Below, piece by piece: positions 1-64,000 of a DNA stretch of 64,000 bases (position 1 is its first letter; each line of letters opens with the position of its first letter). Below the pieces are notes generated by a model. The model searched no databases. It worked only from the letters and a program-made list of their open reading frames with translations, and was not told the DNA's origin. The translations under genes were made by a program, and so were the position numbers. The stretch is from a virus: IMG/VR virus record IMGVR_UViG_3300047510_002509. One strand, 5' to 3'.

Positions 1-1970
1 CCTTTGTCATACCAATCATTAATAACTAGCTCACCATCAAGATAAAGCTTTACTCCATCATCCGCTGGAGCGTAGACATGAGTTACATCAATTTCAGGTG
101 TCCAAGTTCCTATGTACTTAACAATTACATCCTCGTGGAGATTTGATCCAGCAACATAGCCCCCACCCCACTGCTCGTTAATTCCGTCAGTGTCAGTGGT
201 TGTATAAACTGGAGTAGCGTTTTCGGATAGTACGGGGGCATTATTCTGTCCTTGTACGTTATAAACTTCTACTTTTAATCCTTGTTGAGTATTTGTATCC
301 ACTACTGCTTGAGCCACCGCTTCAGTTGTAATTGCTTCAGCTACCACCGCTTCTTGTGTCTCAACGGCTGCGGTTGTATTAGCTAACACTTGAGTCTTGT
401 CTGCTACTACTTCCTGAGCAGCCTCTACTGTTGAAGCTGAAGAAACAAGAGTTTGAGCCGTGCTCATATCTGCTTGAGCCTGTGTTATTGCTGCTTGTGC
501 TTCAGAAACTTGTGTTGTTGCGTTTAAAACTGCCTCTGTAACTGCTGTTGTAGGTTCAAGAGTGTTTGCTGTTAATACAACTGCTTCTAGGGTTTGAGCG
601 ACTACTTCTATAGCTTCTGCAGATACTGCAACCTGAGCTTCTGCAACTTCTACCTCGGCTTCATCTATTTCAGTTTCTGCGATTTCTATTGCAGTTTCTG
701 TGGCGATAACAGATGATGCAAGAGATAGTCCCGCTGAAACAGCAACATCTTGAGCTGTGGATTGAAATGTTTGTGCTGTAGCAAGAGTCTCCTGCTCGGA
801 TGTTAGTGTCGCTGTGGCATTAGTTTCTGCAGCTTGAAGAGTTGTAAGAGTTGTTTGCTCTGTAGCTAAAGTAGTTGCCGCTTCTTCAGCTGCTTCTGTA
901 AGAGCAGGGTCAGAGCTAGTTGTAGTCACACGTATGTTGTCAATAATGTAAATATCACTATCTGGTTGAATAGTGACACTATCTATAGCTTTTCCATCAG
1001 GTGCTGTAATTGTTTCTACATATGTATGATCTGGGTTTGAAACACCATTGTGGTACATAACTCCATTTTCAAGAGTTCCTGTTGAAGTACTTCCATCCGT
1101 TGCAACAATGGTTTCTACTGCGTCACCATTTTTTGCATAAATATCAAACTCAATAGCAGTTACATTTTGATCTGTTGGATTAATAGTTATAGGAGATGTG
1201 CCGTTTGTGTAAAGAGCGTTTCCTTGAACACCTTCTGAGTTCCAACCGCCACTTATTTGAGCGCCAGTTCCAACTGTAATTTGAGGGTCTATTTGTCCAT
1301 CAGTGAAATTTTCAATAACTGTTGTAGTAGAACTGTTTGCTGCATCTGCCGCGGTTTGAGCTGCTGAAGCATCTGCTTCTGCTTGAGTCACTACTGATTC
1401 TTGAGTCGTTACTGCATTTGTCGCTTCTGTTACTGCTGTTTGAGCTTCTGCTACTACTGCTGTTTGGGCCTCAACTGTGGCGGTTGCTTGGGCCAAAGTT
1501 TGATTGGCAATTTCCGATACTGCAAGTGCTGTTTCTGCAGATTGAACTGCTGAACCTGCTTCTTGTGTAGCACTAGAAGCTTCTGCTACCTGTGTCTGAG
1601 CATTAGATACTGATTCTGTGACGTCCGCTGTTGGTTCTGATATTGATGATGTTACCTCCGAAATCTGATTAATTTTTGTTTCTAAGCTTGCTACTTCAGA
1701 TTCCGCCGTTGCTACAGCGGTTGCCGCTTCTGTGATTTGCTCTTGCGTTGAGCCACTGGAAGAAGCTTGTGGATCACCTCCCGACGACGCATTTGTATCA
1801 GTGGATGTACTGTTTGGGTCTGGTGCTGGTTGCACCCCCTCTTCGTCGGCAGCGTATGCAGTTTGTGGAGTTAAAACTCCGATGAAAAAAATTATAAAAG
1901 GGGTAGCAGAAAGTGATAGCCAAAATCTTGTTAAGAATTGACTCGGTCTTCCAGTAAAACGACGCGACAC
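1..1970 (-). CDS. Large secreted/surface protein with Ala/Thr/Glu-rich stalk and PA14 domain (3' end outside window)
   Basis: Not in the ORF track because it is open to the window edge. GGAGG RBS then GTG at 1970; signal peptide ending TAYA-ADEE; PA14-like HVYAPADDGVKLYLDGELVINDWYD at 3-80 in the same frame. Confidence 0.8.
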   Translation of the reverse strand, partial: MSRRFTGRPSQFLTRFWLSLSATPFIIFFIGVLTPQTAYAADEEGVQPAPDPNSTSTDTNASSGGDPQASSSGSTQEQITEAATAVATAESEVASLETKINQISEVTSSISEPTADVTESVSNAQTQVAEASSATQEAGSAVQSAETALAVSEIANQTLAQATATVEAQTAVVAEAQTAVTEATNAVTTQESVVTQAEADASAAQTAADAANSSTTTVIENFTDGQIDPQITVGTGAQISGGWNSEGVQGNALYTNGTSPITINPTDQNVTAIEFDIYAKNGDAVETIVATDGSTSTGTLENGVMYHNGVSNPDHTYVETITAPDGKAIDSVTIQPDSDIYIIDNIRVTTTSSDPALTEAAEEAATTLATEQTTLTTLQAAETNATATLTSEQETLATAQTFQSTAQDVAVSAGLSLASSVIATETAIEIAETEIDEAEVEVAEAQVAVSAEAIEVVAQTLEAVVLTANTLEPTTAVTEAVLNATTQVSEAQAAITQAQADMSTAQTLVSSASTVEAAQEVVADKTQVLANTTAAVETQEAVVAEAITTEAVAQAVVDTNTQQGLKVEVYNVQGQNNAPVLSENATPVYTTTDTDGINEQWGGGYVAGSNLHEDVIVKYIGTWTPEIDVTHVYAPADDGVKLYLDGELVINDWYDK

Positions 1971-2065
1971 TTTGATGCCTCCAGCGCACGGCAATTAAAG
2001 GCGGCAAAAACCGACCCTTTTCAGCTTGGTGTCCAGTCAAGCTGTATGTAAATTTTATCGTATTG

Positions 2066-2749
2066 CTAAATGTCTAAAATGCTTTTCTCTTTTGAGTACA
2101 TCAAAAAAATGTGTCTTACGTTTGCTGCGTACCAGTCACTACCACCTCTTGGTGGAACAACACCATCACTCTTTAAACCTTCAGCAATTTTTCCGTACGA
2201 AAGTCCAGCTGTACGTTCGTCATAAATTCTTTTTCTAATTTCAAGAGGTAGTGGGGATTTTGGTCCAATATTAACCCCCCAAACCTTTCCAGCGTCTCTA
2301 CGGTCCTTATGGACATCTTTCTGACGCATAGAAATCATTCCACGCTCCATTTCAGCCATTGCTGACATGATGGTTACAACAAAACGTCCTTGATAAGTTC
2401 CTGTGTCCAATCCCAAATCAAGAAGTGCTAAACGCCATTCGTATTTATGTGAACGATCAACAATACTTAAAAAATCACGAGTGGAGCGTGCAAGCCTGTC
2501 TAAGCGTGTAACAAAAAGTGCTTGCGCCTTTCCTGCATCTAACTCATCTAATGCTTTTCGCAAAACAGGTCTACCAGTAATACTTTTACCAGACTTACCC
2601 TCTTCACGAAGAATTACAGCTACATAACCAGCAGACTCTGCAGCTGCAATTAGCTGACGCTCTTGTGCATCAAGTGACACGCCTTCCTCTGCTTGCATTT
2701 GAGTAGACACTCGCGCATAGCAGTAGGCAATACCCTCACTCATATCCAA
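2066..2749 (-). CDS. Serine recombinase (resolvase family) with C-terminal recombinase/HTH region
   Basis: YARVST catalytic motif, SG..RP.L, RLDRLARS, AEMER. Confidence 0.9.
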   Translation of the reverse strand: MDMSEGIAYCYARVSTQMQAEEGVSLDAQERQLIAAAESAGYVAVILREEGKSGKSITGRPVLRKALDELDAGKAQALFVTRLDRLARSTRDFLSIVDRSHKYEWRLALLDLGLDTGTYQGRFVVTIMSAMAEMERGMISMRQKDVHKDRRDAGKVWGVNIGPKSPLPLEIRKRIYDERTAGLSYGKIAEGLKSDGVVPPRGGSDWYAANVRHIFLMYSKEKSILDI

Positions 2750-2942
2750 TGCCCTCTTTTTTCAAACTAATTATTGCTTGGTCTAGTCTGTCGTTTGGAC
2801 AATTCCTTACAGACTCTTCGTATGTATTACCGCAATCTCCACACTTCCAAGTCATCTCTGCAATAGCGTCGTAGTGTCCTACGACATATCCTTTGTCATA
2901 ACCTATGTCATAACCTTCCTGATAAAGATTTTTCTTTCTCAT
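2736..2942 (-). CDS. Hypothetical protein (GY repeats, CxxC)
   Basis: Coupled between thyX and the recombinase. Confidence 0.6.
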   Translation of the reverse strand: MRKKNLYQEGYDIGYDKGYVVGHYDAIAEMTWKCGDCGNTYEESVRNCPNDRLDQAIISLKKEGIGYE

Positions 2943-3676
2943 TAAGGAGATACTCTTCCGTTATCTACAAAAGCTTTGTGAGTTACTGGCATGTGATACT
3001 CAAAAATCTCTTCATACCTTTCAGCAACCATTTCAATCTCTCTTTGAGGATATGAAGGAAAGCTCTGACCTTCAACATTCCTACGGAGACTTAGGAAGTT
3101 CATCAAAGAGCGAGCATTCATGGTGACATAAGCAGAAGAATAAATTGTCACTGGGAGCACTCCTCGAGCGACTTCTCGAGCAACACCATTAGAAAGCATC
3201 TCTTTGTAGTTGTAGTACGCCTCTGTACATGTCTTTTTATAATTATTAACAGTTATTGCGTACTGCTGGTCAGTGCCTTCTTCAAAAACATAAGCACCTG
3301 GTTTGCCAACTTGAACTAGTTTTCTGTCCTGATTAGGGACATAGAACTCTGGTTCAAGCTCCCTATAACGCCCAGACTCTTCGTTGTAGGAAGCGATGCG
3401 ATGACGCATATGCTCGCGCCAGACAAAGATAGGTGCTTTGACGTAGAACGTGAAATATGAATGCTCAAATGGAGTGCCATGACGCTCTCTCATCAAGAAG
3501 TTAATCAGGCCTTGTTCTCTTTTAGATAACTCATTAGTTTCATCAAAAGAGGCTGTGTAGTCTCGAGTTCTTTCTCCCTCGGTGCTTACTCGAGCGGAAA
3601 AGATGACATCCATGTCTTCAGCACTACATTTAACAAGTTCTACGTCAACATCAGAACTGAACAGAATTTCAGACAA
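2942..3676 (-). CDS. thyX: FAD-dependent thymidylate synthase
   Basis: HGTPFEH and RHRIASYNEESGRY ThyX motifs; actinobacterial-type sequence. Confidence 0.97.
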   Translation of the reverse strand: MSEILFSSDVDVELVKCSAEDMDVIFSARVSTEGERTRDYTASFDETNELSKREQGLINFLMRERHGTPFEHSYFTFYVKAPIFVWREHMRHRIASYNEESGRYRELEPEFYVPNQDRKLVQVGKPGAYVFEEGTDQQYAITVNNYKKTCTEAYYNYKEMLSNGVAREVARGVLPVTIYSSAYVTMNARSLMNFLSLRRNVEGQSFPSYPQREIEMVAERYEEIFEYHMPVTHKAFVDNGRVSP

Positions 3677-54579: not shown

Positions 54580-54950
54580 TGAGAAAACAACTAGATGTCT
54601 TTCCAGCAATCGTAAAAGTCATTTCTCCGGGCTCCCTTTCCGACCTAAGCCTCGCTAACGTCAAAGGGGATATGCCACAAGGGACAAGGAAGTTGGACCG
54701 TTGTAGGGTTGTGGTGCTTGGCGACACGATTGTGATTGCCGTTGACTCTCCTGAGGGGCCTCAGCTAGTCTTCCGCGAGCGGGTTGTTGAAATGCTCAAT
54801 GAGAAGGGCTTAGACAGGGTAAAAACCGAATCAGGCAAAATGCTGGCTTTTATCAAGGACAATAACTGCGGGTGTGGGTCTCGGCTTCGTAGTTGGAACC
54901 CTTTTGGAAACATCGTCTCATCTACGGAGGACCCAAGTGGAATTATTTGA
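54579..54950 (+). CDS. Hypothetical protein (CGCGSRLRSW)
   Basis: Coupled ORF upstream of the portal. Confidence 0.7.
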   Translation: MRKQLDVFPAIVKVISPGSLSDLSLANVKGDMPQGTRKLDRCRVVVLGDTIVIAVDSPEGPQLVFRERVVEMLNEKGLDRVKTESGKMLAFIKDNNCGCGSRLRSWNPFGNIVSSTEDPSGII

Positions 54951-55221
54951 GTTTGTAATACTCGCCCTTGCAACCTTTCGTATCACCAGACTAATAACGC
55001 GAGACGTTATTACCGAACCAATAAGGAGTAGAGTCTGGAAAAAGCTACCCCCAGAGTCTTCCAAGATTGGCTACCTATTCACTTGCGAGTGGTGTATGTC
55101 GATTTGGGTAGCATCACTTGTCTACGTATGCTTTATCATTACATCAGTAACTGTTATCCTTTTAGTGCCATTCGCACTATCAGCCGTAGCAGGACTGTTG
55201 ACTGCGTATGAGGACAAATAG
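54937..55221 (+). CDS. DUF1360-like membrane protein
   Basis: LATFRITRLIT.D.I..P.R, L.TC.WC.S.W. Confidence 0.85.
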   Translation: MELFEFVILALATFRITRLITRDVITEPIRSRVWKKLPPESSKIGYLFTCEWCMSIWVASLVYVCFIITSVTVILLVPFALSAVAGLLTAYEDK

Positions 55222-55253: not shown

Positions 55254-57023
55254 ATGGCGGTATTCAAAAAAGAAGAGCCAGTACAAGAGCCAGTTGTTTC
55301 TGAAACCAAGAAACCACGTCCTCGTCGCCGTACTCGTACTAACCGCTCTACTCAAATTATTGAGAGAACAGTAGCTCCTCAGCCTTCTGGCATTCTTTCA
55401 GTTTTCACTTCACCAAACTCACCAGCTCCGCTTTCTTACAACACTCCTCGTTCTATGACTGCAGCAGCAGTTCAAGTCAAAGTAAATGACAAAGGCGAGT
55501 TCGAACAGTTTAAGCAACGTCGTAGCGCATCCTCATCTGCATGGCAGGCCGAAGCTTGGGAGTATTACGACGCAATTGGTGAAATTAAATACGCATTTAA
55601 TCTTGTTGCATCTGTTGTCTCACGTATTCGTATATACGCAGCTGCAATTGATGACCCATCACAGGCTCCAGTTTCAGTACACGAGTCTCGAGTAATTGAC
55701 CAACGTCTTGCATCAGCAGCAGAGCGTGCTCTTGACCGTCTTAACTCTGCATATGGAGGCCAAGCAGGTCTTCTTAAAGATGCAGCTCTTAATCTTTCAG
55801 TTGCTGGTGAATGTTATCTAGTACAAATGCCAGCTCGTCCAGGTTCAGGAATTCCTGAATCTTGGGACGTCCGTTCCGTTGACGAAGTTGTAACAGATGC
55901 ACGTGGTGGATTTAATGTTATTGGTCGCCGTGAGCAGGGTGCAGGTCAAGGTGGCGGTGCATCAATGGGAGTTAACAAACTTAATAAAGGTTCCTTTGTA
56001 GGACGTATCTGGCGTTCACATCCACGTTTCTCTGATGAAGCAGATTCTTCTCTACGCGGTCTTCTAGATCTTTGCGCAGAACTACTTCTCCTCAACAGAA
56101 CATTCCGTGCAACTGCACGCTCTCGCCTCAACGCAGGAGCACTTTATCTTCCAGACGGACTTTCTGTTGCTGCACAAGCAGACCCTAACTATCCATACGA
56201 TTCTGAAGACGGAATGGGAGCGGGCTTTACTGCAGAAGAAGCAGAAGACGAATTTGAAGAGCAACTCATCGATGCGATGACAACTCCGATTCGTGATGAA
56301 GAATCTGCGAGCGCTGTTGTTCCTCTTATCATTCGCGGTCCTGCAGAACTTGGTGACCGCATCAAGCAATTTAAGTTTGAGCGTTCTTTCGACCCAGCAC
56401 TTGCTGAGCGTTCAGACCGTGTACTAGAGCGCATTCTTCAAGGTCTTGATGTTCCAAAGGACATCGTCACAGGTCTTGCAAATGTTAAGTACTCCAACGC
56501 GATGCAAATCGACGAGTCTCTGTACAAGGCACACATCGAACCATTGATGCTTCTCATCTCAGACGCTCTTACAGTTGTCTACCTACGCCCATATCTAATG
56601 GCAAATGGTTTCACCGAGTCTGAAGTAAATAGAATTGTTGTTTGGTACGACCCATCAGCAGTCTCAACACGTAACGACCGTGCTGCAGATGCAGATGCAG
56701 GTTACGACCGCATGGCAGTTTCTGCTGACACATGGCGTCGTGCTCACGGCTTCTCAGACCAAGATGCTCCTACTCCAACAGAAGTTGCTCTACGACTTCT
56801 ACAAGAGCGTGGCGCAATCACACCAGAACTTACAGAGGCAATGCTTAAAGCTGTTGCACCAGATGTGATGCAAGCAGTTCAGCAAGTAAGCCAAGAAAGT
56901 TCTGTTGCTCCAATGTCACCAGAGTTGCAAACTCTTCTTGACGGTGCAATTGGCGAAGCTCCAGCAGAGACTCCAACCGAGGAACCAGCAACACCTGCAC
57001 CAACTGAGGAGGCTCAGCAGTAA
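55254..57023 (+). CDS. Portal protein (actinophage type)
   Basis: WQ.EAWEYYD.IGE, L.V.GECY, RIWR.HPR....ADS, SA.VP. Confidence 0.8.
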   Translation: MAVFKKEEPVQEPVVSETKKPRPRRRTRTNRSTQIIERTVAPQPSGILSVFTSPNSPAPLSYNTPRSMTAAAVQVKVNDKGEFEQFKQRRSASSSAWQAEAWEYYDAIGEIKYAFNLVASVVSRIRIYAAAIDDPSQAPVSVHESRVIDQRLASAAERALDRLNSAYGGQAGLLKDAALNLSVAGECYLVQMPARPGSGIPESWDVRSVDEVVTDARGGFNVIGRREQGAGQGGGASMGVNKLNKGSFVGRIWRSHPRFSDEADSSLRGLLDLCAELLLLNRTFRATARSRLNAGALYLPDGLSVAAQADPNYPYDSEDGMGAGFTAEEAEDEFEEQLIDAMTTPIRDEESASAVVPLIIRGPAELGDRIKQFKFERSFDPALAERSDRVLERILQGLDVPKDIVTGLANVKYSNAMQIDESLYKAHIEPLMLLISDALTVVYLRPYLMANGFTESEVNRIVVWYDPSAVSTRNDRAADADAGYDRMAVSADTWRRAHGFSDQDAPTPTEVALRLLQERGAITPELTEAMLKAVAPDVMQAVQQVSQESSVAPMSPELQTLLDGAIGEAPAETPTEEPATPAPTEEAQQ

Positions 57024-58367
57024 ATGGCTGAAGAGACTTGCCCTCCAGCAACTCAAGATGTTGCTTTGAATCTAAAAAATCGCAAGAACGCGATTGACAC
57101 TGCAATGTATGGACCACTCAATCCTGCAGAGCCAAACGAAGAGTATTGGACTGCACTTGGAAGCGAGTGGGGCGTAGATGCAGAAACTGCTAAAAAGCAG
57201 ACTTGTGGCAATTGCGCTGTCTTTATTAAAACACCAGAGATGCTTTCATGCATTGAAAGCGGTTTGACCGACAACTCAGATGAGTTCGATTCAATTGATG
57301 CAGCTGGTGAACTAGGATATTGCGAAGCGTTTGATTTCAAATGTGCATCTGCACGTACATGTCGCGCTTGGGTTGCAGGTGGTCCTGTGACAGCTGCTGC
57401 TAAAAAGAAGATTGCACAAACCCCTGCCCCTAAAAAAGATCGCGTCAAAGGCTCTGACAAAAATACAAAGGGCTCAGCTGCAGGCGGTAAGAAAATCACT
57501 TTTACTCCTGCGATTGAAGCTTCTCTTCGAAAGAAGGCACAGGAGCACAACGAGAAGGCACCTAAGGGTCGCAAGACTTCCGTCTCAACGCTCAAGGCGG
57601 TCTACCGCCGTGGTGCAGGAGCCTATTCAGTATCTCATCGACCTGGGATGACTCGTAACCAGTGGGCTATGGGTCGCGTTAACGCTTTCCTTCGTCTACT
57701 TAAGTCTGGTAAGCCAAAGAACTCTGCGTACAAAGCAGATAATGACCTTCTACCAGCATCACACCCTAAGTCTTCAAAAAAGAACGCATCTTCAAAAGCA
57801 ATTACAGCTTCTGCGTTGATTCCTGAAGAGCAGGCACTAGCAGACGCTCTTGTTTCAATCACAGAGAAATATGGCAAGTTTGACCAAGACGGTGATGGAG
57901 TTTGGGCTGGCTACACACCTGCTTCTGAGAACGAAGTAAAAGATATCGGCGTTAAGTGCTCCAACTGCGTCTTCTACCAAGCAGGAGATGTATGTCGAAT
58001 TATTTCTCTTCCAATTGAAGATGATGGTAAGTGCCGTTTTGCTGTAATTCCAGAAGGCGTTGTAGATGTTTCGCAGGTTCCAGTTCGTGATGAAGAAGAC
58101 CTAGAACTTCTTCTTGCATCTGCAGAGGCAGAAGCAGACCTAACCGTGGAGTTGAAGTCTGAAGAAGAGTACGAAACTCCAGAGTACGCAATTTTTGCCA
58201 TGACAGAATATTCTGGACTTGGCTACGAAGCAGAGCCAGCTTTCCGTGCTGCTTGGCTTCGTGCAGTTCGCAACAATGAAAACCCATTTAAGCGAGCAGC
58301 AGTTCTTGCAGTAATGACATACGACAGCATGGATTCAGACCTTCTGCCGAAAAGGAAGAACAAGTAA
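57024..58367 (+). CDS. Multi-domain head-associated protein with two Cys clusters (HiPIP-like) and a basic YRRG..SHRPG..QWA..RVN.F domain
   Basis: CGNC...GYC....FKC...RTC..W; CSNCVFY....C.........G.C; follows the portal. Confidence 0.7.
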   Translation: MAEETCPPATQDVALNLKNRKNAIDTAMYGPLNPAEPNEEYWTALGSEWGVDAETAKKQTCGNCAVFIKTPEMLSCIESGLTDNSDEFDSIDAAGELGYCEAFDFKCASARTCRAWVAGGPVTAAAKKKIAQTPAPKKDRVKGSDKNTKGSAAGGKKITFTPAIEASLRKKAQEHNEKAPKGRKTSVSTLKAVYRRGAGAYSVSHRPGMTRNQWAMGRVNAFLRLLKSGKPKNSAYKADNDLLPASHPKSSKKNASSKAITASALIPEEQALADALVSITEKYGKFDQDGDGVWAGYTPASENEVKDIGVKCSNCVFYQAGDVCRIISLPIEDDGKCRFAVIPEGVVDVSQVPVRDEEDLELLLASAEAEADLTVELKSEEEYETPEYAIFAMTEYSGLGYEAEPAFRAAWLRAVRNNENPFKRAAVLAVMTYDSMDSDLLPKRKNK

Positions 58368-61300
58368 TGGCTGCCAAGAGCAAAATACAAGTACCAGTTA
58401 TTTCTTATGAAGCGCAGAACCAGCGAATTATTGATGCTGGTCTTGAGCTAGTTAAAGAAGCAAACTCTAAGTTTTCTGGTTCTCGCATTGTTACTCGTAG
58501 AGCTGCTCTTGCTGTTCTAAACCGTTCTTTGACAAAGTATGAAGGTGAGTCTTACTCTCTTCGTCGTATTCGCTCCATCAAAGAGTTAAACAACTACATC
58601 CAACTTGCTCAATACAACAAAGTTTTCTTTGGAACTGTAGATAACACAGACCTACTTCCAATCTCCCACCCACGTTCTACTCGCAAGCATGAGTTGAGCA
58701 CTGCTGACCTTATGCGCCACCGCGCTCGCTGGATTGTTGACGACCCAAAGATTCAAGACGATGAGATTCGCTCTGTTCTAGCTTCTGCTCTAACTGCACA
58801 CCCAGCTACCGCTGAGTACGAGTATTCAATCGCTCGCTTGCAGTCACTGCCACAGGGCACAGTCCCTTCTTACGCACTTCTAGCAGCTCTAGGTGATGGA
58901 AACTCATCTGCTGCACGTCGCGCTCGTGCTTTGCTACAGCGTCGTGACCGTAAGGGTCGCTTTGCGTTCATGGGCGGTTCACTTCGTGCTTTGATTCGTA
59001 AAGCAAATGGTGTTGTTCAATCTCTAACTGGTAAGACTGTTGCTGCCGATGAGAACAGCGATACTTTTGACATTGAGTTGCCAAATGGTGACCTTGTTCG
59101 TGTCCCAGCCAAGTCTGCAGAAGGTGTCAAGGCAGTTCTTAAGTCTGCTCAAAATCCAGATGGATATAGCAAGACTCCTGCAAAGGTAAAAACTGGTGAC
59201 CCAGTTGTTGATGAAAAAGATTTAATTAAGCTCGATGCTCCTGCAGGATTTAGCAAGGATGAAAGCTGGTCTCCAAGCGAAGACGACCAGAAGTACTACG
59301 GAACCAAGATTGACCTTGGAACCAAGTACACAGATGATGCATACGACGTTATTAAAGTTTCTAGCCCTAACGCATTTGCTAAAGACCAATTCGAAGCAGC
59401 ACAACAGCGCGAAGGAGAAGGTCAGAACGTTGTTACAGAAGGACTTGGAAAGAATGGCTCACTAGACCCAAATCTTCCTGTCTACTTTGTATCTCGCCGT
59501 GGAGAGAACGAGAAGTTCCCGTTTGCTGCTGTACAGCGTTGGTCTGATGTTCAGGACTACATTGCACAGGATGAACCAAAGTTTGAGAAGAACGAACTAC
59601 CAGACCCATCAAAGATGCTTGATGAAGGTCAAGAAGCTTCTGAGCCACAAGCCCCAGAGGCAACACCTGCTGAAGGTCTTGAAGGCAAGTTAGTTCCTAA
59701 ATCTTCAAAGAAGAATTTGAAGAAAGACCAGAAGAAGTATCAAAAGGCTCTTAAGGATTATGAGAAGAGTGGTGGAACATTCCCACTCGACCCGACCAAA
59801 GACCACATGCTTCTTCCAGATGGCACAGTTGTTGACGCTGAGACTGGTGAGGTTGTTCGTAATGCAGATGGAACCTCTGCAAAAATTAAGCCTGGAACTG
59901 AAGCATCTGAAGTTCCTGCTGGCGCATACAAGATGGACGATGCTCCATACACACCACAGGGAGCCGATGCAGATGTAGAGTCTGCTGACTACACAGATGA
60001 CCCTGCTGAAATCGCACAAAAGTTTGATACTCCAGAAATTACTGATGCTTTGGAAAAAGCTGTTGATGGAGACGGAACTTCTCAGCTTCCATTTGAAGCA
60101 GGAGATGAGTCTGTACCTGCTGAGGCTCTAAGAGATGCTCTTGATGAAAAGGGCGAAGACTCTAAAAGCATTCTTGCAAAAATTTACGACAAGATTAAAA
60201 ACAAGCTTTCAGGTAAGAAAGAAGAAGCTACACCTGAAGTTCCTCAAGATGTTGTAGATGAATTAGGCAAAGACTTACCAGAGTCTCCAATGCCATCTGC
60301 TGATGCAGACCCAGCAAAATTGCCTGCACTGCTTGATGGATTGTCTGATGCAGAAAAAGACGAGTATGCCAAAACTGGCGATTACGCCAAGCATCTTCCA
60401 AAAAATAAAGATGATTTTGATTTGCCAGAAGGTTACGGCTTCCTAGACGCAGAGCCTTTTAACAAAGACCTATTCACACTTCCAGAGGATGCTCCAGAAG
60501 GATTTAATTTCGACCCAATCGATATTGCAAATAACTACGACACTGAAGCACTTAAGAAGGAGTTGCGTCGCGCTGTGGAACCAGGCGGCGATGGTTATGG
60601 AATTCTTTCTCAAGAGACTGATACTGGCGAAGATTACAATGGGTACGTTCCAGCAGAAGCGATTCGCGATGCGCTTCAACTACAAGGTGAAGACACTAAT
60701 TCTCTTCTTAATGACATTTACGAAGAAGGTATCGCTGGTCAAGAAGACCTAACCCCTGTAGAAATCAGTGACGCTCTGGAAGGAGAAGAACCTGAAACAT
60801 CCGAAGGAACACCAACCCCTGAGCAAGAAGCGCCTGCCGAAGCCCCGCAACAAGTTGCGACGGATGAAGCGGGACCCGAAACCGTTGCCAATATTGGAGA
60901 ACCAAGCGGACCTGCAATCGTTGAATCAAAAGCAGGAGATCTCAAACCAGGAGATATAACTGTTGGTGACAACTTTACGATTGAAAACGTATTTTCTGAT
61001 GAAGAGTCTGAGGCACTAAAACCGGGTTCAGTTTGGGTTGAGGGTTACTATCCAGGTCACGTCACACAAAAGACTAAATTGTGGAACGCAGACACAAACA
61101 TTTCTGTTTTCCGTAACGTCGAGCCTCCTGCAAAGGGAGACTTGCCAGAGCTGTCTAAGCCAAAGCCAAAAGAGTTTGACCCTGAAGGCAAGATTTACAA
61201 GGACAAGGTCCTTGGTGTTTTTGTTCCAAAAGATGGAGAAGCTCGCAGCAAGTTCCTCGATGCTCTAGACCAATACAACGCTCAGATGGCAGAGGCTAAA

Positions 61301-64000
61301 GCTAAGTGGCAAGAGCCAGAAGGTCTAGACAAGTGGCACAGTAAAGAAGACACTGTTTCTTCTGTTCCTGTTTCTAACCCTGTTGCCATTGTTGAAGTTC
61401 CTGCAGCTGAAGTAAAAGCTGGAGACATAACTTTCAAGAAAGAGAAAGACGCTCCAAACTACGAATTTTTTGTTGTTGAAGAGAACCTCGGCATTGACCC
61501 AGAAACAGGTCAGGCAAAACTAAAGGGATTCTATCCAGGACACGTCTCTCAGGAGAAGGCTTGGAACGCAGGAACTCTTATCAAAGTTATGCGTGGAACT
61601 CAGGACTTGCCTTCACCTGGCGACAAGCCAGCTCTAGAGCGTCCAAAGTATGCAGACCCAGATTACAACTCTAAGAAGGCTGCTTTTGATAAAGCTAAAG
61701 CAGAGTCTGGTGCAGCTTTCACACCTCCAATTGACCCAGAAACAACCACAGCTGCAGTTCCTCCAAAGCCATCTCGCCCTGTTTACCCAATCTTTGGTGG
61801 CGGCGAGAAGCTCAAGTCGATTCTTGCTGAAGCTAATGGAGACCCAGCAAAGCTCAAGGAACTTCTTAATAATGAAGTTATTGTCAGCTTTGATTTTGAA
61901 ACTGCTGCAAACAAGACAAAAGTATTTAACGAGCAAAAGCCAATTCAAGTTGCAGTTACAAAGACTAAGAATGGCGAGCTTGTAGAAGAGCCTCTAGTTC
62001 TTTGGATGAATCCTGAAGTACCTCTAGGCGATTTCTACAAGAAGGCTGACTCAGAAGGTATTCTCAAGGACACTGAAGGAAACCCAATCTCTGATGAGTG
62101 GCTCGCTAAGCAGCAATCTATTAGTGAAGCTTTTGCCAAGATTAAGGAATACCTTGGTGACGAGCCTGTAATTCTCATGGGCCATAACATCAGTGACTTT
62201 GATATCCCAATTCTTCAGCGCCACATGGAAGAAATCGGTGAGACTGTAAATATTGGTGGAACTATTGACACACTTCCACTTGCAAAGAAGTTAAAGTTCC
62301 TTGGAGATGGAAACAAGCTTGCTGAAGTTTACGCAAAGTATTTCCCTGAGAAGGGAGACCTCAACTGGCACGACGCTGCAACTGATGTTTCAGTTCTTCC
62401 AGACATTCTCAACGCAATGCTTGATGAAACTGCGTTAACTAAGAATCCTCTAGTTTTAGAAGATTTCGACATTGATGCAGCAAAGGCTAAGTACGATGCA
62501 GCTGTAGCAGACTACCTTGCTAGTAAGGCTAAGAAGTCTAAGGTTGAAACAGACCAGATTATGGCTGAGACTGTTGCTAAGGGCGGCGAAGGGGAGACTG
62601 TTGACTCTCTTATCGAGAAGGTCCCAGCTGAGCTTCCAACAAAAGATGACCTAACTTCTGCAACTATCTCTGAAGTCGTTACAACAGAGCCAGACATCGA
62701 GTCTGTCCTTGGTGGATTTGTTTCCAACAACTATGTAAATGACCCAGAAAACGTTACCTACCTAGGTGCAGTTCCTGTTGAAGAGTGGAAAGCAGGAGAC
62801 TTTATTGCTGCACCAAACGGCGGATACTGGGAAGTCCTCTCAATTGAGCCAGACCCAGAAAACGATAAAAAAGTTTTTGTTAATCGACGTCTGCTTGCAA
62901 ACGGTAACGTTTACAGCGCCGAGAACGGAAAAATTAACAGCTGGGTTAAGTATGCGAAGTACGGTTTGTGGAGACGTAACTCTGCTACTACTGAAGTAGA
63001 ACCAGAGCCAGAGCTAGAACAACCACAACTTGAAACCGATGAGGCCCCAAAGAAGGAGGAGTCCGCTGGTACTTGGGAGGGTTACAAGATTTCTCAAGGC
63101 ACCGACGGTGTTTACTATGCCGAAAACATTAAGTCTGAGGATGTACAGAAACTAAAGAGTGGTGAGCTAACACCTCCACAAACTCCATTCTTTGCACCAC
63201 TTGGCGGCGGAAATGATCAAGAGACTGGAGAAGGCTACTTCTTCACCACAGATGGCAAGCGCTTCTGGGGTAAGTATGGTGCCGCTGGTGCTTTGGTACG
63301 TCGCAAGAATGCAGATGGAGAGTACGAGTACTTCTTAGCAAAGCGTTCTTCAAGCCTATCCCAAGGTGGTGGCAAGTGGGGCATCCCAGGTGGTGCTCAC
63401 AAAGACCAACTTATGGCGAAGACTCCACAAGCAACTTCCAAAGAAGAGTTTATGGAAGAAGTTGGTGGTGACCTCACTAACCTCACACCTATCTACACCG
63501 ACATTAACAAGGTTGGGGCAGAGTGGGGCTACGAGACAGATGTTTATGAAGTAGGACCAAACCAATTCAAAGACCTTTCCAGCAAGGATGGAGAGAACAC
63601 TGCAGTTGGTTGGTTCACCGCTGACCAAATTACCAAGATGGCAGATGAAGGAAAACTTCACTCAGACTTTGCTGACTCATTCCCAGGAATTATTGACTCT
63701 GTAAATCTTGATGCTCCTACCTCTGGTAAGCCAACTACCACTGAAACCGTATTTGCTGAAGATGTTTCAACAACATTCGACACCAGCAAGTGGGTCAAGT
63801 CAGGTGGACAAGGTGGTTCTAACCAAGGTGCTTTCTACACTGACCCACAAACTGGTCAGCAGTACTACGTAAAGAAGCCAAAGTCTGACAAGCACGCTGC
63901 GAATGAAGTTCTTGGCGGTGCATTATACGAAGCTGCAGGTGTTAAGTTCGGTCGTGCTTATCTAGGTGTAGACAAGAGTGGAAAAACTGTTTTAGTTTCT
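58367..64000 (+). CDS. Giant polyvalent protein (>1878 aa, runs off window): DEDDh exonuclease, Nudix, kinase-like domain
   Basis: TAATG-coupled start; same frame at each point translated and at the window end; FDFET/GHNISDFD/HDAATD; FWGKYGAAG...WGIPGG...EEVG; GQGGSN...YYVK...NEV. Confidence 0.85.
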   Translation, partial: MAAKSKIQVPVISYEAQNQRIIDAGLELVKEANSKFSGSRIVTRRAALAVLNRSLTKYEGESYSLRRIRSIKELNNYIQLAQYNKVFFGTVDNTDLLPISHPRSTRKHELSTADLMRHRARWIVDDPKIQDDEIRSVLASALTAHPATAEYEYSIARLQSLPQGTVPSYALLAALGDGNSSAARRARALLQRRDRKGRFAFMGGSLRALIRKANGVVQSLTGKTVAADENSDTFDIELPNGDLVRVPAKSAEGVKAVLKSAQNPDGYSKTPAKVKTGDPVVDEKDLIKLDAPAGFSKDESWSPSEDDQKYYGTKIDLGTKYTDDAYDVIKVSSPNAFAKDQFEAAQQREGEGQNVVTEGLGKNGSLDPNLPVYFVSRRGENEKFPFAAVQRWSDVQDYIAQDEPKFEKNELPDPSKMLDEGQEASEPQAPEATPAEGLEGKLVPKSSKKNLKKDQKKYQKALKDYEKSGGTFPLDPTKDHMLLPDGTVVDAETGEVVRNADGTSAKIKPGTEASEVPAGAYKMDDAPYTPQGADADVESADYTDDPAEIAQKFDTPEITDALEKAVDGDGTSQLPFEAGDESVPAEALRDALDEKGEDSKSILAKIYDKIKNKLSGKKEEATPEVPQDVVDELGKDLPESPMPSADADPAKLPALLDGLSDAEKDEYAKTGDYAKHLPKNKDDFDLPEGYGFLDAEPFNKDLFTLPEDAPEGFNFDPIDIANNYDTEALKKELRRAVEPGGDGYGILSQETDTGEDYNGYVPAEAIRDALQLQGEDTNSLLNDIYEEGIAGQEDLTPVEISDALEGEEPETSEGTPTPEQEAPAEAPQQVATDEAGPETVANIGEPSGPAIVESKAGDLKPGDITVGDNFTIENVFSDEESEALKPGSVWVEGYYPGHVTQKTKLWNADTNISVFRNVEPPAKGDLPELSKPKPKEFDPEGKIYKDKVLGVFVPKDGEARSKFLDALDQYNAQMAEAKAKWQEPEGLDKWHSKEDTVSSVPVSNPVAIVEVPAAEVKAGDITFKKEKDAPNYEFFVVEENLGIDPETGQAKLKGFYPGHVSQEKAWNAGTLIKVMRGTQDLPSPGDKPALERPKYADPDYNSKKAAFDKAKAESGAAFTPPIDPETTTAAVPPKPSRPVYPIFGGGEKLKSILAEANGDPAKLKELLNNEVIVSFDFETAANKTKVFNEQKPIQVAVTKTKNGELVEEPLVLWMNPEVPLGDFYKKADSEGILKDTEGNPISDEWLAKQQSISEAFAKIKEYLGDEPVILMGHNISDFDIPILQRHMEEIGETVNIGGTIDTLPLAKKLKFLGDGNKLAEVYAKYFPEKGDLNWHDAATDVSVLPDILNAMLDETALTKNPLVLEDFDIDAAKAKYDAAVADYLASKAKKSKVETDQIMAETVAKGGEGETVDSLIEKVPAELPTKDDLTSATISEVVTTEPDIESVLGGFVSNNYVNDPENVTYLGAVPVEEWKAGDFIAAPNGGYWEVLSIEPDPENDKKVFVNRRLLANGNVYSAENGKINSWVKYAKYGLWRRNSATTEVEPEPELEQPQLETDEAPKKEESAGTWEGYKISQGTDGVYYAENIKSEDVQKLKSGELTPPQTPFFAPLGGGNDQETGEGYFFTTDGKRFWGKYGAAGALVRRKNADGEYEYFLAKRSSSLSQGGGKWGIPGGAHKDQLMAKTPQATSKEEFMEEVGGDLTNLTPIYTDINKVGAEWGYETDVYEVGPNQFKDLSSKDGENTAVGWFTADQITKMADEGKLHSDFADSFPGIIDSVNLDAPTSGKPTTTETVFAEDVSTTFDTSKWVKSGGQGGSNQGAFYTDPQTGQQYYVKKPKSDKHAANEVLGGALYEAAGVKFGRAYLGVDKSGKTVLVS

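Follow-up and report, generated by a model that had tools for sequence, protein, structure and literature searches.

A giant gene with a constant stem and an exchangeable enzyme payload in the head module of an uncultured actinobacterial phage

We analyzed a 64,000-nucleotide (nt) stretch of viral DNA, IMG/VR record IMGVR_UViG_3300047510_002509, which is called the window below. It corresponds to G000:C1:61687-125686 of a single 136,029-bp contig, and its source is an uncultured freshwater actinobacterial phage. The window ends inside a giant gene that encodes a protein of 3137 residues. This protein is probably a polyvalent effector that is loaded into the prohead and ejected, with a constant loading stem followed by an exchangeable enzyme payload. 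Several lines of evidence were established directly: the open reading frame (ORF), its domains and their active-site residues, the modules shared with other head proteins, the stem and payload design across the family, and the swap of a payload cassette. The gene lies in the head module and encodes at least five enzymatic or ligand-binding domains, within the two to fifteen effector-type domains that characterize polyvalent proteins.

From this evidence we infer packaging, ejection, the substrates, and any counter-defense role. The stem (residues 1 to about 800) contains a DUF5824-like domain, a QxRDxxG(K/R)F module, and two VPAEA repeats. It would dock the giant in the assembling prohead. The payload (residues about 800-3137) consists of small folded domains on acidic linkers, namely, three beta-rich repeats, an exonuclease, a Nudix domain, a kinase, a WYL-like ligand-binding barrel, and an ADP-ribosyltransferase (ART) fold. 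The cysteine-free chain, like beads on a string, would be ejected along with the DNA. Early in infection, within the first minutes, the payload would target host nucleic acids and proteins, together with molecules derived from NAD/ADP-ribose. Judging from the domain families, its actions may include trimming of nucleic-acid 3' ends, ADP-ribose- or NADH-type hydrolysis, phosphorylation, and possibly ADP-ribosylation. The features of the giant are as follows.

58367..64000, + strand: giant ORF, first 1878 of 3137 codons, continuing to L001:9414 = G000:C1:129466 (ORF scan)
58397..58711, + strand: DUF5824-like N-terminal domain, residues 11-115 (hhalign against the neighboring DUF5824 protein)
58889..59143, + strand: QxRDxxG(K/R)F module of ~80 aa, residues 175-259 (BLASTP and hhalign against the prohead protease polyprotein)
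59990..60727, + strand: two copies of an acidic helical repeat of ~75 aa, VPAEA(L/I)RDAL, residues 542-609 and 713-787 (self-comparison)
60767: approximate 5' breakpoint of the swapped payload cassette, gene nt ~2400, residue ~800 (identity drop against contig L023)
60917..61657, + strand: copies 1 and 2 of a beta-rich repeat of ~85 aa (GD..., G(Y/F)YPGH, W), residues 851-936 and 1008-1097 (self-comparison)
61883..62395, + strand: DEDDh 3'-5' exonuclease (RNase_T/DnaQ-like), residues 1173-1343 (Pfam PF00929, E 1.7e-10)
62771..63034, + strand: third, diverged copy of the beta-rich repeat, residues 1469-1556 (hidden Markov model [HMM], E 2.7e-14)
63224..63682, + strand: RenU (formerly MutT3)-type Nudix domain, residues 1620-1772 (PDB 6uuf, E 4.5e-11; Pfam NUDIX)
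63764..64000, + strand, continuing off the window: CtkA/PI4K/HipA-like atypical kinase domain, residues 1800-2045 (fold match of an AlphaFold2 [AF2] model)
Off the window, residues 2058-2118: WYL-like domain (weak Pfam WYL match in relatives)
Off the window, residues 2230-2345, 2370-2450, and 2490-2640: beta-rich modules of unassigned type
Off the window, residues 2690-2950: alpha/beta domain (weak TBP-, START-, or chaperone-like matches, Z about 5)
Off the window, residues 2952-3137: ART fold (structural match of a model)

The giant gene and its stem in the head module

The giant ORF starts with an ATG at window position 58367, with a 1-nt overlap with the stop codon of the preceding gene. 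The frame is open to the window end at 64000 and then on to C1:129466, with zero internal stops. The complete protein (L001:1-9414) contains 3137 aa, with a mass of 341.6 kDa and an isoelectric point (pI) of 4.7. The last 1260 residues, 40% of the protein, lie off the window. The original prediction had described a single ORF, which the unbroken frame bears out; the window merely truncates the gene. Full-length colinear homologues were retrieved from nine IMG/VR contigs with 53-58% identity, so the gene is real and conserved. Megablast of the region against GenBank phages returned zero matches, and protein-level searches were therefore needed. Pfam searches with the whole 3137-aa protein missed nearly all domains. 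Searching in pieces recovered RNase_T and NUDIX.

The stem begins with the DUF5824-like domain, which ends in DLLPISHP (residues 95-102, window 58649-58672). Residues 11-115 are homologous to the DUF5824 region of the protein encoded directly upstream (P0002; hhalign 87%, E 4e-6, 102 columns). The DUF5824 domain of that protein ends in DLLPASHP (window 57744-57767). A six-frame translation of the genome shows the pattern D[LIVM][LIVM]PxxHP exactly twice, in these two proteins. The pair is retained in all colinear relatives and in Actinomycetia phage DSL-LC01. A DLLPxxHP-type motif was found within the first 250 aa of 193 of 226 giant relatives. An unrelated Salinibacter phage encodes a DUF5824 protein between its head-morphogenesis gene and its major head protein gene.

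The second module contains QRRDRKGRF at residues 191-199. Residues 175-259 match residues ~348-428 of the protease polyprotein (BLASTP E 9e-6; hhalign 97.2%, E 3.8e-11). The genome contains QxRDxxG[KR]F exactly three times, once each in the giant, the protease polyprotein, and a 240-aa protein encoded behind the polyprotein. By a rough estimate, the count expected by chance is about 0.01. The motif is present in 185 of 226 giants. The giant and the protease polyprotein both carry it in Microbacterium phage Pumpernickel (gp82 and gp84), L014, and L017 too; the N-termini there are otherwise different.

The 240-aa protein (L001:14192-14911) carries the motif as QPRDAAGKF. In Pumpernickel, the C-terminal part of the protease polyprotein gp84 is homologous to it. 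The 240-aa protein is probably the scaffold.

The third part of the stem is the VPAEA repeat. Its two copies are 40% identical (E 4e-13), with VPAEA at residues 583 and 761 (window 60113 and 60647). An HMM of the repeat found 253 copies in 134 relatives, which makes it part of the constant stem. What had been read as two short repeated motifs is a real repeat of ~75 aa. DLLPxxHP, QRRDRKGRF, VPAEA, and YPGH, the motifs named in the original prediction, all lie where it had placed them.

The DUF5824-like and QxRDxxG(K/R)F modules would bind the prohead interior or undergo protease processing. Residues 1-300 gave no MuF/SPP1 gp7 (PF04233) match in Pfam at E<=1 and no PDB profile match. A search of the ESM Atlas with the giant N-terminus returned nothing usable.

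The neighboring genes of the head module are listed here.

54874-55221: DUF1360 protein, directly upstream of the portal gene (E 5.6e-13; phrog_781)
55254..57023, + strand: portal protein, 589 aa (PHROG phrog_776, E 3.1e-107)
57024..58367, + strand: 447-aa head-module protein with a DUF5824 domain (Pfam DUF5824, E 8e-9, 36.2 bits against a cut-off of 25)
L001:9417-9734 and L001:9685-9990, just past the window: small overlapping ORFs of 105 and 101 aa in different frames

The gene order is DUF1360 protein, portal, 447-aa DUF5824 protein, giant, two small ORFs, protease polyprotein, and 240-aa protein. The polyprotein contains 1398 aa and carries the prohead S78 protease. The giant had been predicted to be portal-linked. 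Its place in the head module holds, and direct adjacency does not, as the giant is two genes downstream of the portal. The nearest named phages are Actinomycetia phage DSL-LC01, which was assembled from a lake metagenome, and Microbacterium phages such as Pumpernickel. The portal is 62-74% identical to the portals of DSL-LC01 and Pumpernickel (tblastn). The order of portal, DUF5824 protein, giant, small ORF(s), and prohead protease was also found in DSL-LC01, Pumpernickel, L020, L021, and L023. In both DSL-LC01 and Pumpernickel, the slot is occupied by a "hypothetical" giant, of 3289 aa and 2235 aa (gp82), respectively. Gordonia phage GMA2 encodes a related portal, with some neighboring genes annotated as structural. 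It contains no giant gene and neither of the two motifs, and it therefore provides no proteomic support for the giant.

Several smaller observations concern these neighbors. The position of the DUF1360 gene upstream of the portal is kept in L020 and L021. L020 contains a ferritin-like gene (PF00210; L020:4817-5290) between the portal and the DUF5824 protein, within the head module. The 447-aa DUF5824 protein contains two Cys-rich clusters (CGNC...C...C...C and CSNC...C...C) with a weak match to HiPIP. In L021, the Cys-rich N-terminal module of the DUF5824 protein is fused instead to the small ORF that follows the giant. In DSL-LC01, a "high potential iron-sulfur protein" is annotated after the giant gene. 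Modules are therefore shuffled among the head genes.

Domains of the payload

The payload begins with the beta-rich repeats. Copies 1 and 2 are 40% identical (E 5e-14), and the diverged third copy was recovered with the HMM. The "two or three" repeats of the original prediction are accounted for by these copies. No match to an SH3-like barrel, the fold named for the repeats in the original prediction, was found in Pfam, the PDB, or the ESM Atlas. Searches of the PDB with the beta-rich repeats and the WYL-like domain gave insignificant matches only (T-cell receptor chains and Sac7d; E>0.2).

The exonuclease domain was complete, as had been predicted. It scored 42.1 bits against a PF00929 cut-off of 24 and matched phrog_192 (E 9e-18) and the NCBIfam PolC/DnaQ models (E 8e-15). 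It encodes all five catalytic residues (D1176, E1178, D1279, H1335, and D1340). They are retained in 84-85 of 88 relatives.

The Nudix domain scored 23.8 bits against PF00293, just above the cut-off of 21.1. Its match to mycobacterial RenU (6uuf) extends over 150 residues and includes the N-terminal extension GxGyff..g.rFWGkyGAAG. RenU hydrolyzes ADP-ribose, FAD, and NADH but not NAD+, and it was formerly misannotated as MutT3 (PMC4401782). The Nudix box of the phage reads Gx8Kx7EEUxEExGU and departs from the canonical Gx5Ex7REUxEExGU. Compared with RenU, it contains a 3-residue insertion, K1685 in place of the first Glu, and E1693 in place of Arg. The last two changes may represent a conserved charge swap of a salt bridge. 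E1694, E1697, and E1698 are invariant in 30 relatives and correspond to E74, E77, and E78 of RenU. A RenU triple mutant of these residues (E74A/E77A/E78A) is enzymatically dead (PMC4401782). The call of a MutT3-like Nudix domain was right about the type, and its description of the box as degenerate was overstated, as the three catalytic Glu are invariant. An inactive Nudix domain was rejected for the same reason. From its residues, the domain is expected to be an active enzyme, and its substrates are likely ADP-ribose, NADH, or FAD-type NDP-X compounds.

The Nudix domain lies directly beside the kinase domain (window 63224-64000, L001:4858-6135). L017 and L018 also have the two side by side, in the opposite order. 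The mycobacterial renU gene neighbors the kinase gene pknG and is its functional partner (PMC4401782). PknG is a kinase of a different type from the phage kinase domain. The parallel may be coincidence or convergence.

PDB sequence profiles gave chance matches for the kinase-like domain and the C-terminal modules, so fold comparison was needed. The kinase-like domain itself had no Pfam match at E<=1, including PF00454, and its sequence-profile matches in the PDB were only chance matches. Precomputed PF00454 matches were present in the giants of several relatives. An AF2 model of the domain was built from nine relatives and had a predicted local distance difference test score (pLDDT) of 80. The best structural match with VIA-align was CtkA (3akj; Z 14.3, root mean square deviation 3.8, 210 aligned), followed by CotH (12.3), PI4KIIalpha (12.2), MavQ (12.0), and HipA (10.9). 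Foldseek gave E 1.7e-6 for CtkA and placed CtkA, PI4KIIIbeta, and LepB at E 2e-6 to 1e-5. By fold match, the kinase-like N-lobe begins at residue ~1805 (window ~63780). The N-lobe of a HipA/PI3K-like kinase that had been predicted here is therefore supported by fold matches of Z 10.9-14.3. The residues GSNxG, YVK1836, E1847, D1908-A-W-L-x-N1913-x-D1915, and R-x-D1936-x-G-G are invariant in 36 relatives. Their roles were assigned by motif order, not by superposition.

The WYL-like domain is a small barrel, with 92 copies in 71 relatives. The match to WYL (PF13280) is weak. It was obtained for 6 of 9 copies from relatives (best E 0.0034), and the copy of this phage was unmatched. One relative has a precomputed PF13280 match.

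The C-terminal model covers residues 2638-3137 and had a pLDDT of 76.5. The last ~185 residues matched DarT1 (8baq, Z 9.5), DarT2 (7omv, 8.8), DarTG (7omu, 8.8), 7yk3 (8.3), and Tpt1 (7.3), followed by other ART toxins. The family pattern across 33 unique relatives is H2969, R3002, S3013, D3017, Y3025, and E3087. It resembles the ARTD H-Y-E class plus the invariant Arg, as in DarT (PMC11543638). Position 3087 is Glu in 30 of the 33 unique relatives, and it is Gln in this phage and in two diverged relatives, P0035 and P0120. The ART of this phage may thus be inactive, weakened, or altered in its chemistry, as far as the residues indicate. The ART region had no sequence-level match to DarT, and no DarG or NADAR partner was found.

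One relative (L014-L016 in IMG/VR) has a giant ORF of >5059 aa that runs past the 5' edge of the fetched locus, an edge set by the 10-kb flank limit and not by the contig end. It contains four WYL-like barrels and ~400 residues after the ART domain.

Payload turnover, cysteine avoidance, and alternative readings

A search with residues 1-300 retrieved 179 giant proteins of 1.8-5 kaa (thousand amino acids). A profile of the N-terminus found at least 324 clusters among 1.84 billion representatives. The match was always N-terminal, in proteins of up to 7004 aa. The stand-alone N-terminal domain is nearly absent, with 10 short matches that came mostly from very short contigs. By BLAST and HMM, nearly all relatives have the N-terminal domain and the VPAEA repeats, and the stem is conserved in 117-134 of them. 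The unit of repeat plus exonuclease is common, and the Nudix, kinase, and ART domains each occur in about a quarter to a third of relatives. The payloads of the relatives contain RNase_T, PI3_PI4_kinase, NUDIX, ArdC-N (PF08401), MPTase-PolyVal (PF18818), UvrD-type helicases, ADPrib_exo_Tox, WYL, and sigma70_r4. MPTase-PolyVal is named after polyvalent proteins. The order of the modules differs in L014-L018 and DSL-LC01.

The payload was compared with that of contig L023 (NCBI GCA_046464045.1, 139 kb), with positions counted from the start of the giant gene. The nucleotide identity is 97-100% from 1.2 kb upstream to nt 2400 of the gene. It is 46-75% from nt 2401 to ~9900, with an island of 86% in the Nudix core. 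It is 99% from nt ~9960 onward. The swapped block of ~7.5 kb contains the whole payload (residue ~800 to the end) and the small downstream ORF(s), and its 3' breakpoint is at the start of the protease gene. At the sequence level, so sharp a swap between two phages whose flanks are 97-100% identical shows the payload to be under what appears to be arms-race-type turnover.

The two small ORFs correspond to one gene of 201-203 aa in L023 and L006-L012. The split was also found in L013. The two-gene form may be real, or the split may stem from a frameshift or an error in assembly.

The small gene raises one alternative to the reading of the payload as effectors alone. The payload and this gene may form a toxin-immunity-type cassette, in which an ART or kinase of the payload would harm replication of the phage itself in the producing cell and the small protein would restrain it until packaging. 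The swapped cassette includes the small ORF(s) and ends where the protease gene starts. The N-terminal half of the small gene was found only alongside a colinear payload. L020 and L021, whose payloads differ, contain unrelated sequence in its place. This fits a payload-specific partner protein and is not proof of one. However, the C-terminal half is conserved in every lineage compared, whatever the payload. The comparison covers a handful of loci, and the co-divergence may merely mark where recombination occurred. We regard a toxin-immunity cassette as rather doubtful.

A wider proposal that includes such a gene is tentative, and we consider it possible. In it, the DUF5824-like/DLLPxxHP and QxRDxxG(K/R)F modules would be a general prohead cargo-loading code for the protease, the scaffold, and the giant. 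The code would extend across a wide actinobacterial phage group that includes cultured Microbacterium phages, and the payloads would be swapped as cassettes with a small cognate safety gene.

The giant contains no Cys in 3137 residues. Across 227 giants, there are 147 Cys in 684,585 residues, and 140 of the giants are Cys-free. The other ORFs of the phage contain 0.72% Cys, so the depletion in the giants is roughly 34-fold. It may reflect selection against disulfide cross-links in a protein that would be extracellular for part of the time and would unfold to exit the capsid.

The depletion is hard to explain for a purely cytoplasmic enzyme, and it bears on a second alternative. The giant could be a late, cytoplasmic, unpackaged multienzyme protein that is encoded in the head operon for its timing. 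It would condition the cell during virion production by nucleotide pool clean-up and DNA end processing. DnaQ-like exonucleases and Nudix domains are also housekeeping-type enzymes, and the packaging of the giant is itself a prediction from gene context and modules. However, the two N-terminal modules are shared specifically with other head proteins, namely, the prohead protease, the scaffold-like protein, and the DUF5824 protein. A design in which the N-terminus stays constant and the payload varies freely, with the antirestriction ArdC among the payloads of relatives, suits delivery over one metabolic job. We consider a cytoplasmic role unlikely.

In a third alternative, the giant is mainly a structural protein of the internal core or ejectosome, with a role like that of the internal core proteins of T7 or of a scaffold that fills the head. 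Capsid size, DNA organization, or an ejection conduit would depend on the length and acidic linkers of the giant, and its enzymes would be secondary. The constant stem and the acidic repeats are conserved in 117-134 relatives. One module is common to the giant, the protease polyprotein, and the scaffold-like protein, and the giant is strongly acidic (pI 4.7). However, the catalytic residues of the exonuclease, Nudix, and kinase domains are invariant across relatives, which shows that enzymatic activity is under selection. Payload lengths range between about 1.8 and 7 kaa, and a ruler or core would not be expected to vary in this way. The giant contains zero predicted membrane or channel segments, and its hydrophobic content is low and even. 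A mainly structural role is likewise unlikely. A tape-measure identity was rejected on account of the position of the gene, with the portal on one side and the prohead protease on the other, and of its intact enzymes.

The reading as a prohead-loaded, ejected effector protein is thus the one that we favor. The original prediction of a polyvalent protein in the head module gained support from synteny, the modules common to head proteins, the hallmark domains in relatives, the cassette swap, and the near-zero Cys content. The tasks given to the giant in that prediction, the degradation of nucleotide signals, the trimming of nucleic acids, and the phosphorylation of host targets, are putative, as is a link to any particular defense system. 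Several points weigh against the favored reading. The loading role rests on the co-occurrence of modules, which might just as well serve as protease cleavage sites or as contacts with the scaffold. The giant itself had no MuF/portal fusion, LPD, ArdC-N, or MPTase-PolyVal match in Pfam at E<=1. The match to DarT is moderate (Z 9.5; Foldseek E 0.028). In this phage, Gln at position 3087 leaves the H-Y-E triad incomplete, with H2969 and Y3025 kept. About 900 residues of the giant have no assigned fold. Passage through the tail is assumed to require the unfolding of a 342-kDa protein.

Should the giants prove to be packaged, this family, whose clusters number at least 324 and come mostly from uncultured actinophages of lakes, would make up a very large stock of ready-made injected enzymes. 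Their combinations of enzymes would report the host processes that are key in the first minutes, namely, NAD/ADP-ribose chemistry, nucleic-acid ends, and phosphorylation. The N-terminal modules are a testable candidate for the loading of large cargo into HK97-type proheads, and they could serve to load foreign proteins into capsids. The payload swap supplies natural allele pairs for tests of host range and defense. Should the cargo-loading code and the safety gene prove true, they would make up a modular "load anything" capsid system that evolves like polymorphic toxin loci.

Comparison with known systems

The giant resembles the polyvalent proteins (Iyer, Burroughs, Anand, de Souza, and Aravind 2017, PMC5512222). 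Like them, it contains many effector domains in one polypeptide and is encoded beside virion-morphogenesis genes. The domain order is shuffled in both, and delivery with the DNA is predicted in both. ArdC and ARTs are hallmarks of polyvalent proteins (Iyer et al. 2017, PMC5512222), and ArdC-N, MPTase-PolyVal, UvrD-type helicase, and ART domains were found in relatives that share the N-terminus of the giant. It differs in its anchor, which is made up of the DUF5824-like and QxRDxxG(K/R)F modules and not of MuF, portal, or a described LPD. It also encodes a CtkA/PI4K/HipA-type kinase, whereas the kinases described there belong to a Ser/Thr/Tyr kinase clade that lacks the C-lobe. The text of PMC5512222 mentions Nudix once and DarT never, and a RenU-type Nudix domain and a DarT/Tpt1-like ART appear not to have been catalogued in it.

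The kinase domain is similar in fold (Z 10.9-14.3) to CtkA of Helicobacter pylori, PI4K type II, MavQ and LepB of Legionella, and HipA. It appears to encode the features of these proteins, including a Gly-rich loop (GSNxG), the Lys of YVK, an alpha-C Glu, a catalytic loop (DAWLxNxD), and a metal-binding Asp (RxDxGG). It differs from them in sequence, with identities of only 13-17%.

RenU (Rv0413/MSMEG_0790, PDB 6uuf) is the best sequence match of the Nudix domain, which contains the same N-terminal extension and three catalytic Glu. The phage domain differs in the insertion and charge swap in its box, and it is embedded in a giant protein. DarT1/DarT2 and Tpt1/KptA are the top structural matches of the last 185 residues, and the phage family encodes the H...R...Y...E pattern. 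The ART of this phage differs in having Gln3087 in place of the catalytic Glu and in having no sequence match to DarT. Phages are known or predicted to package ARTs and Nudix domains in their heads (PMC9503650).

Literature searches for DUF5824, and for polyvalent proteins together with actinobacteriophages, returned no papers. The paper on DSL-LC01 contains no discussion of its 3289-aa homologue. The concept is known; this giant family, its anchor modules, its avoidance of Cys, and the payload swap are undescribed in the literature searched.

The internal proteins of T4 have a common short capsid-targeting sequence, a leader of ~10 aa. The candidate signals of this phage are larger, a domain of ~100 aa and a module of ~80 aa. 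The giant has no sequence relationship to T4 Alt and the internal proteins, P1 DarB, or the N4 virion RNA polymerase, and its packaging is predicted. It would otherwise resemble them: these proteins are large or enzymatic, are loaded into the head, and are ejected with the DNA (PMC5512222, PMC9503650).

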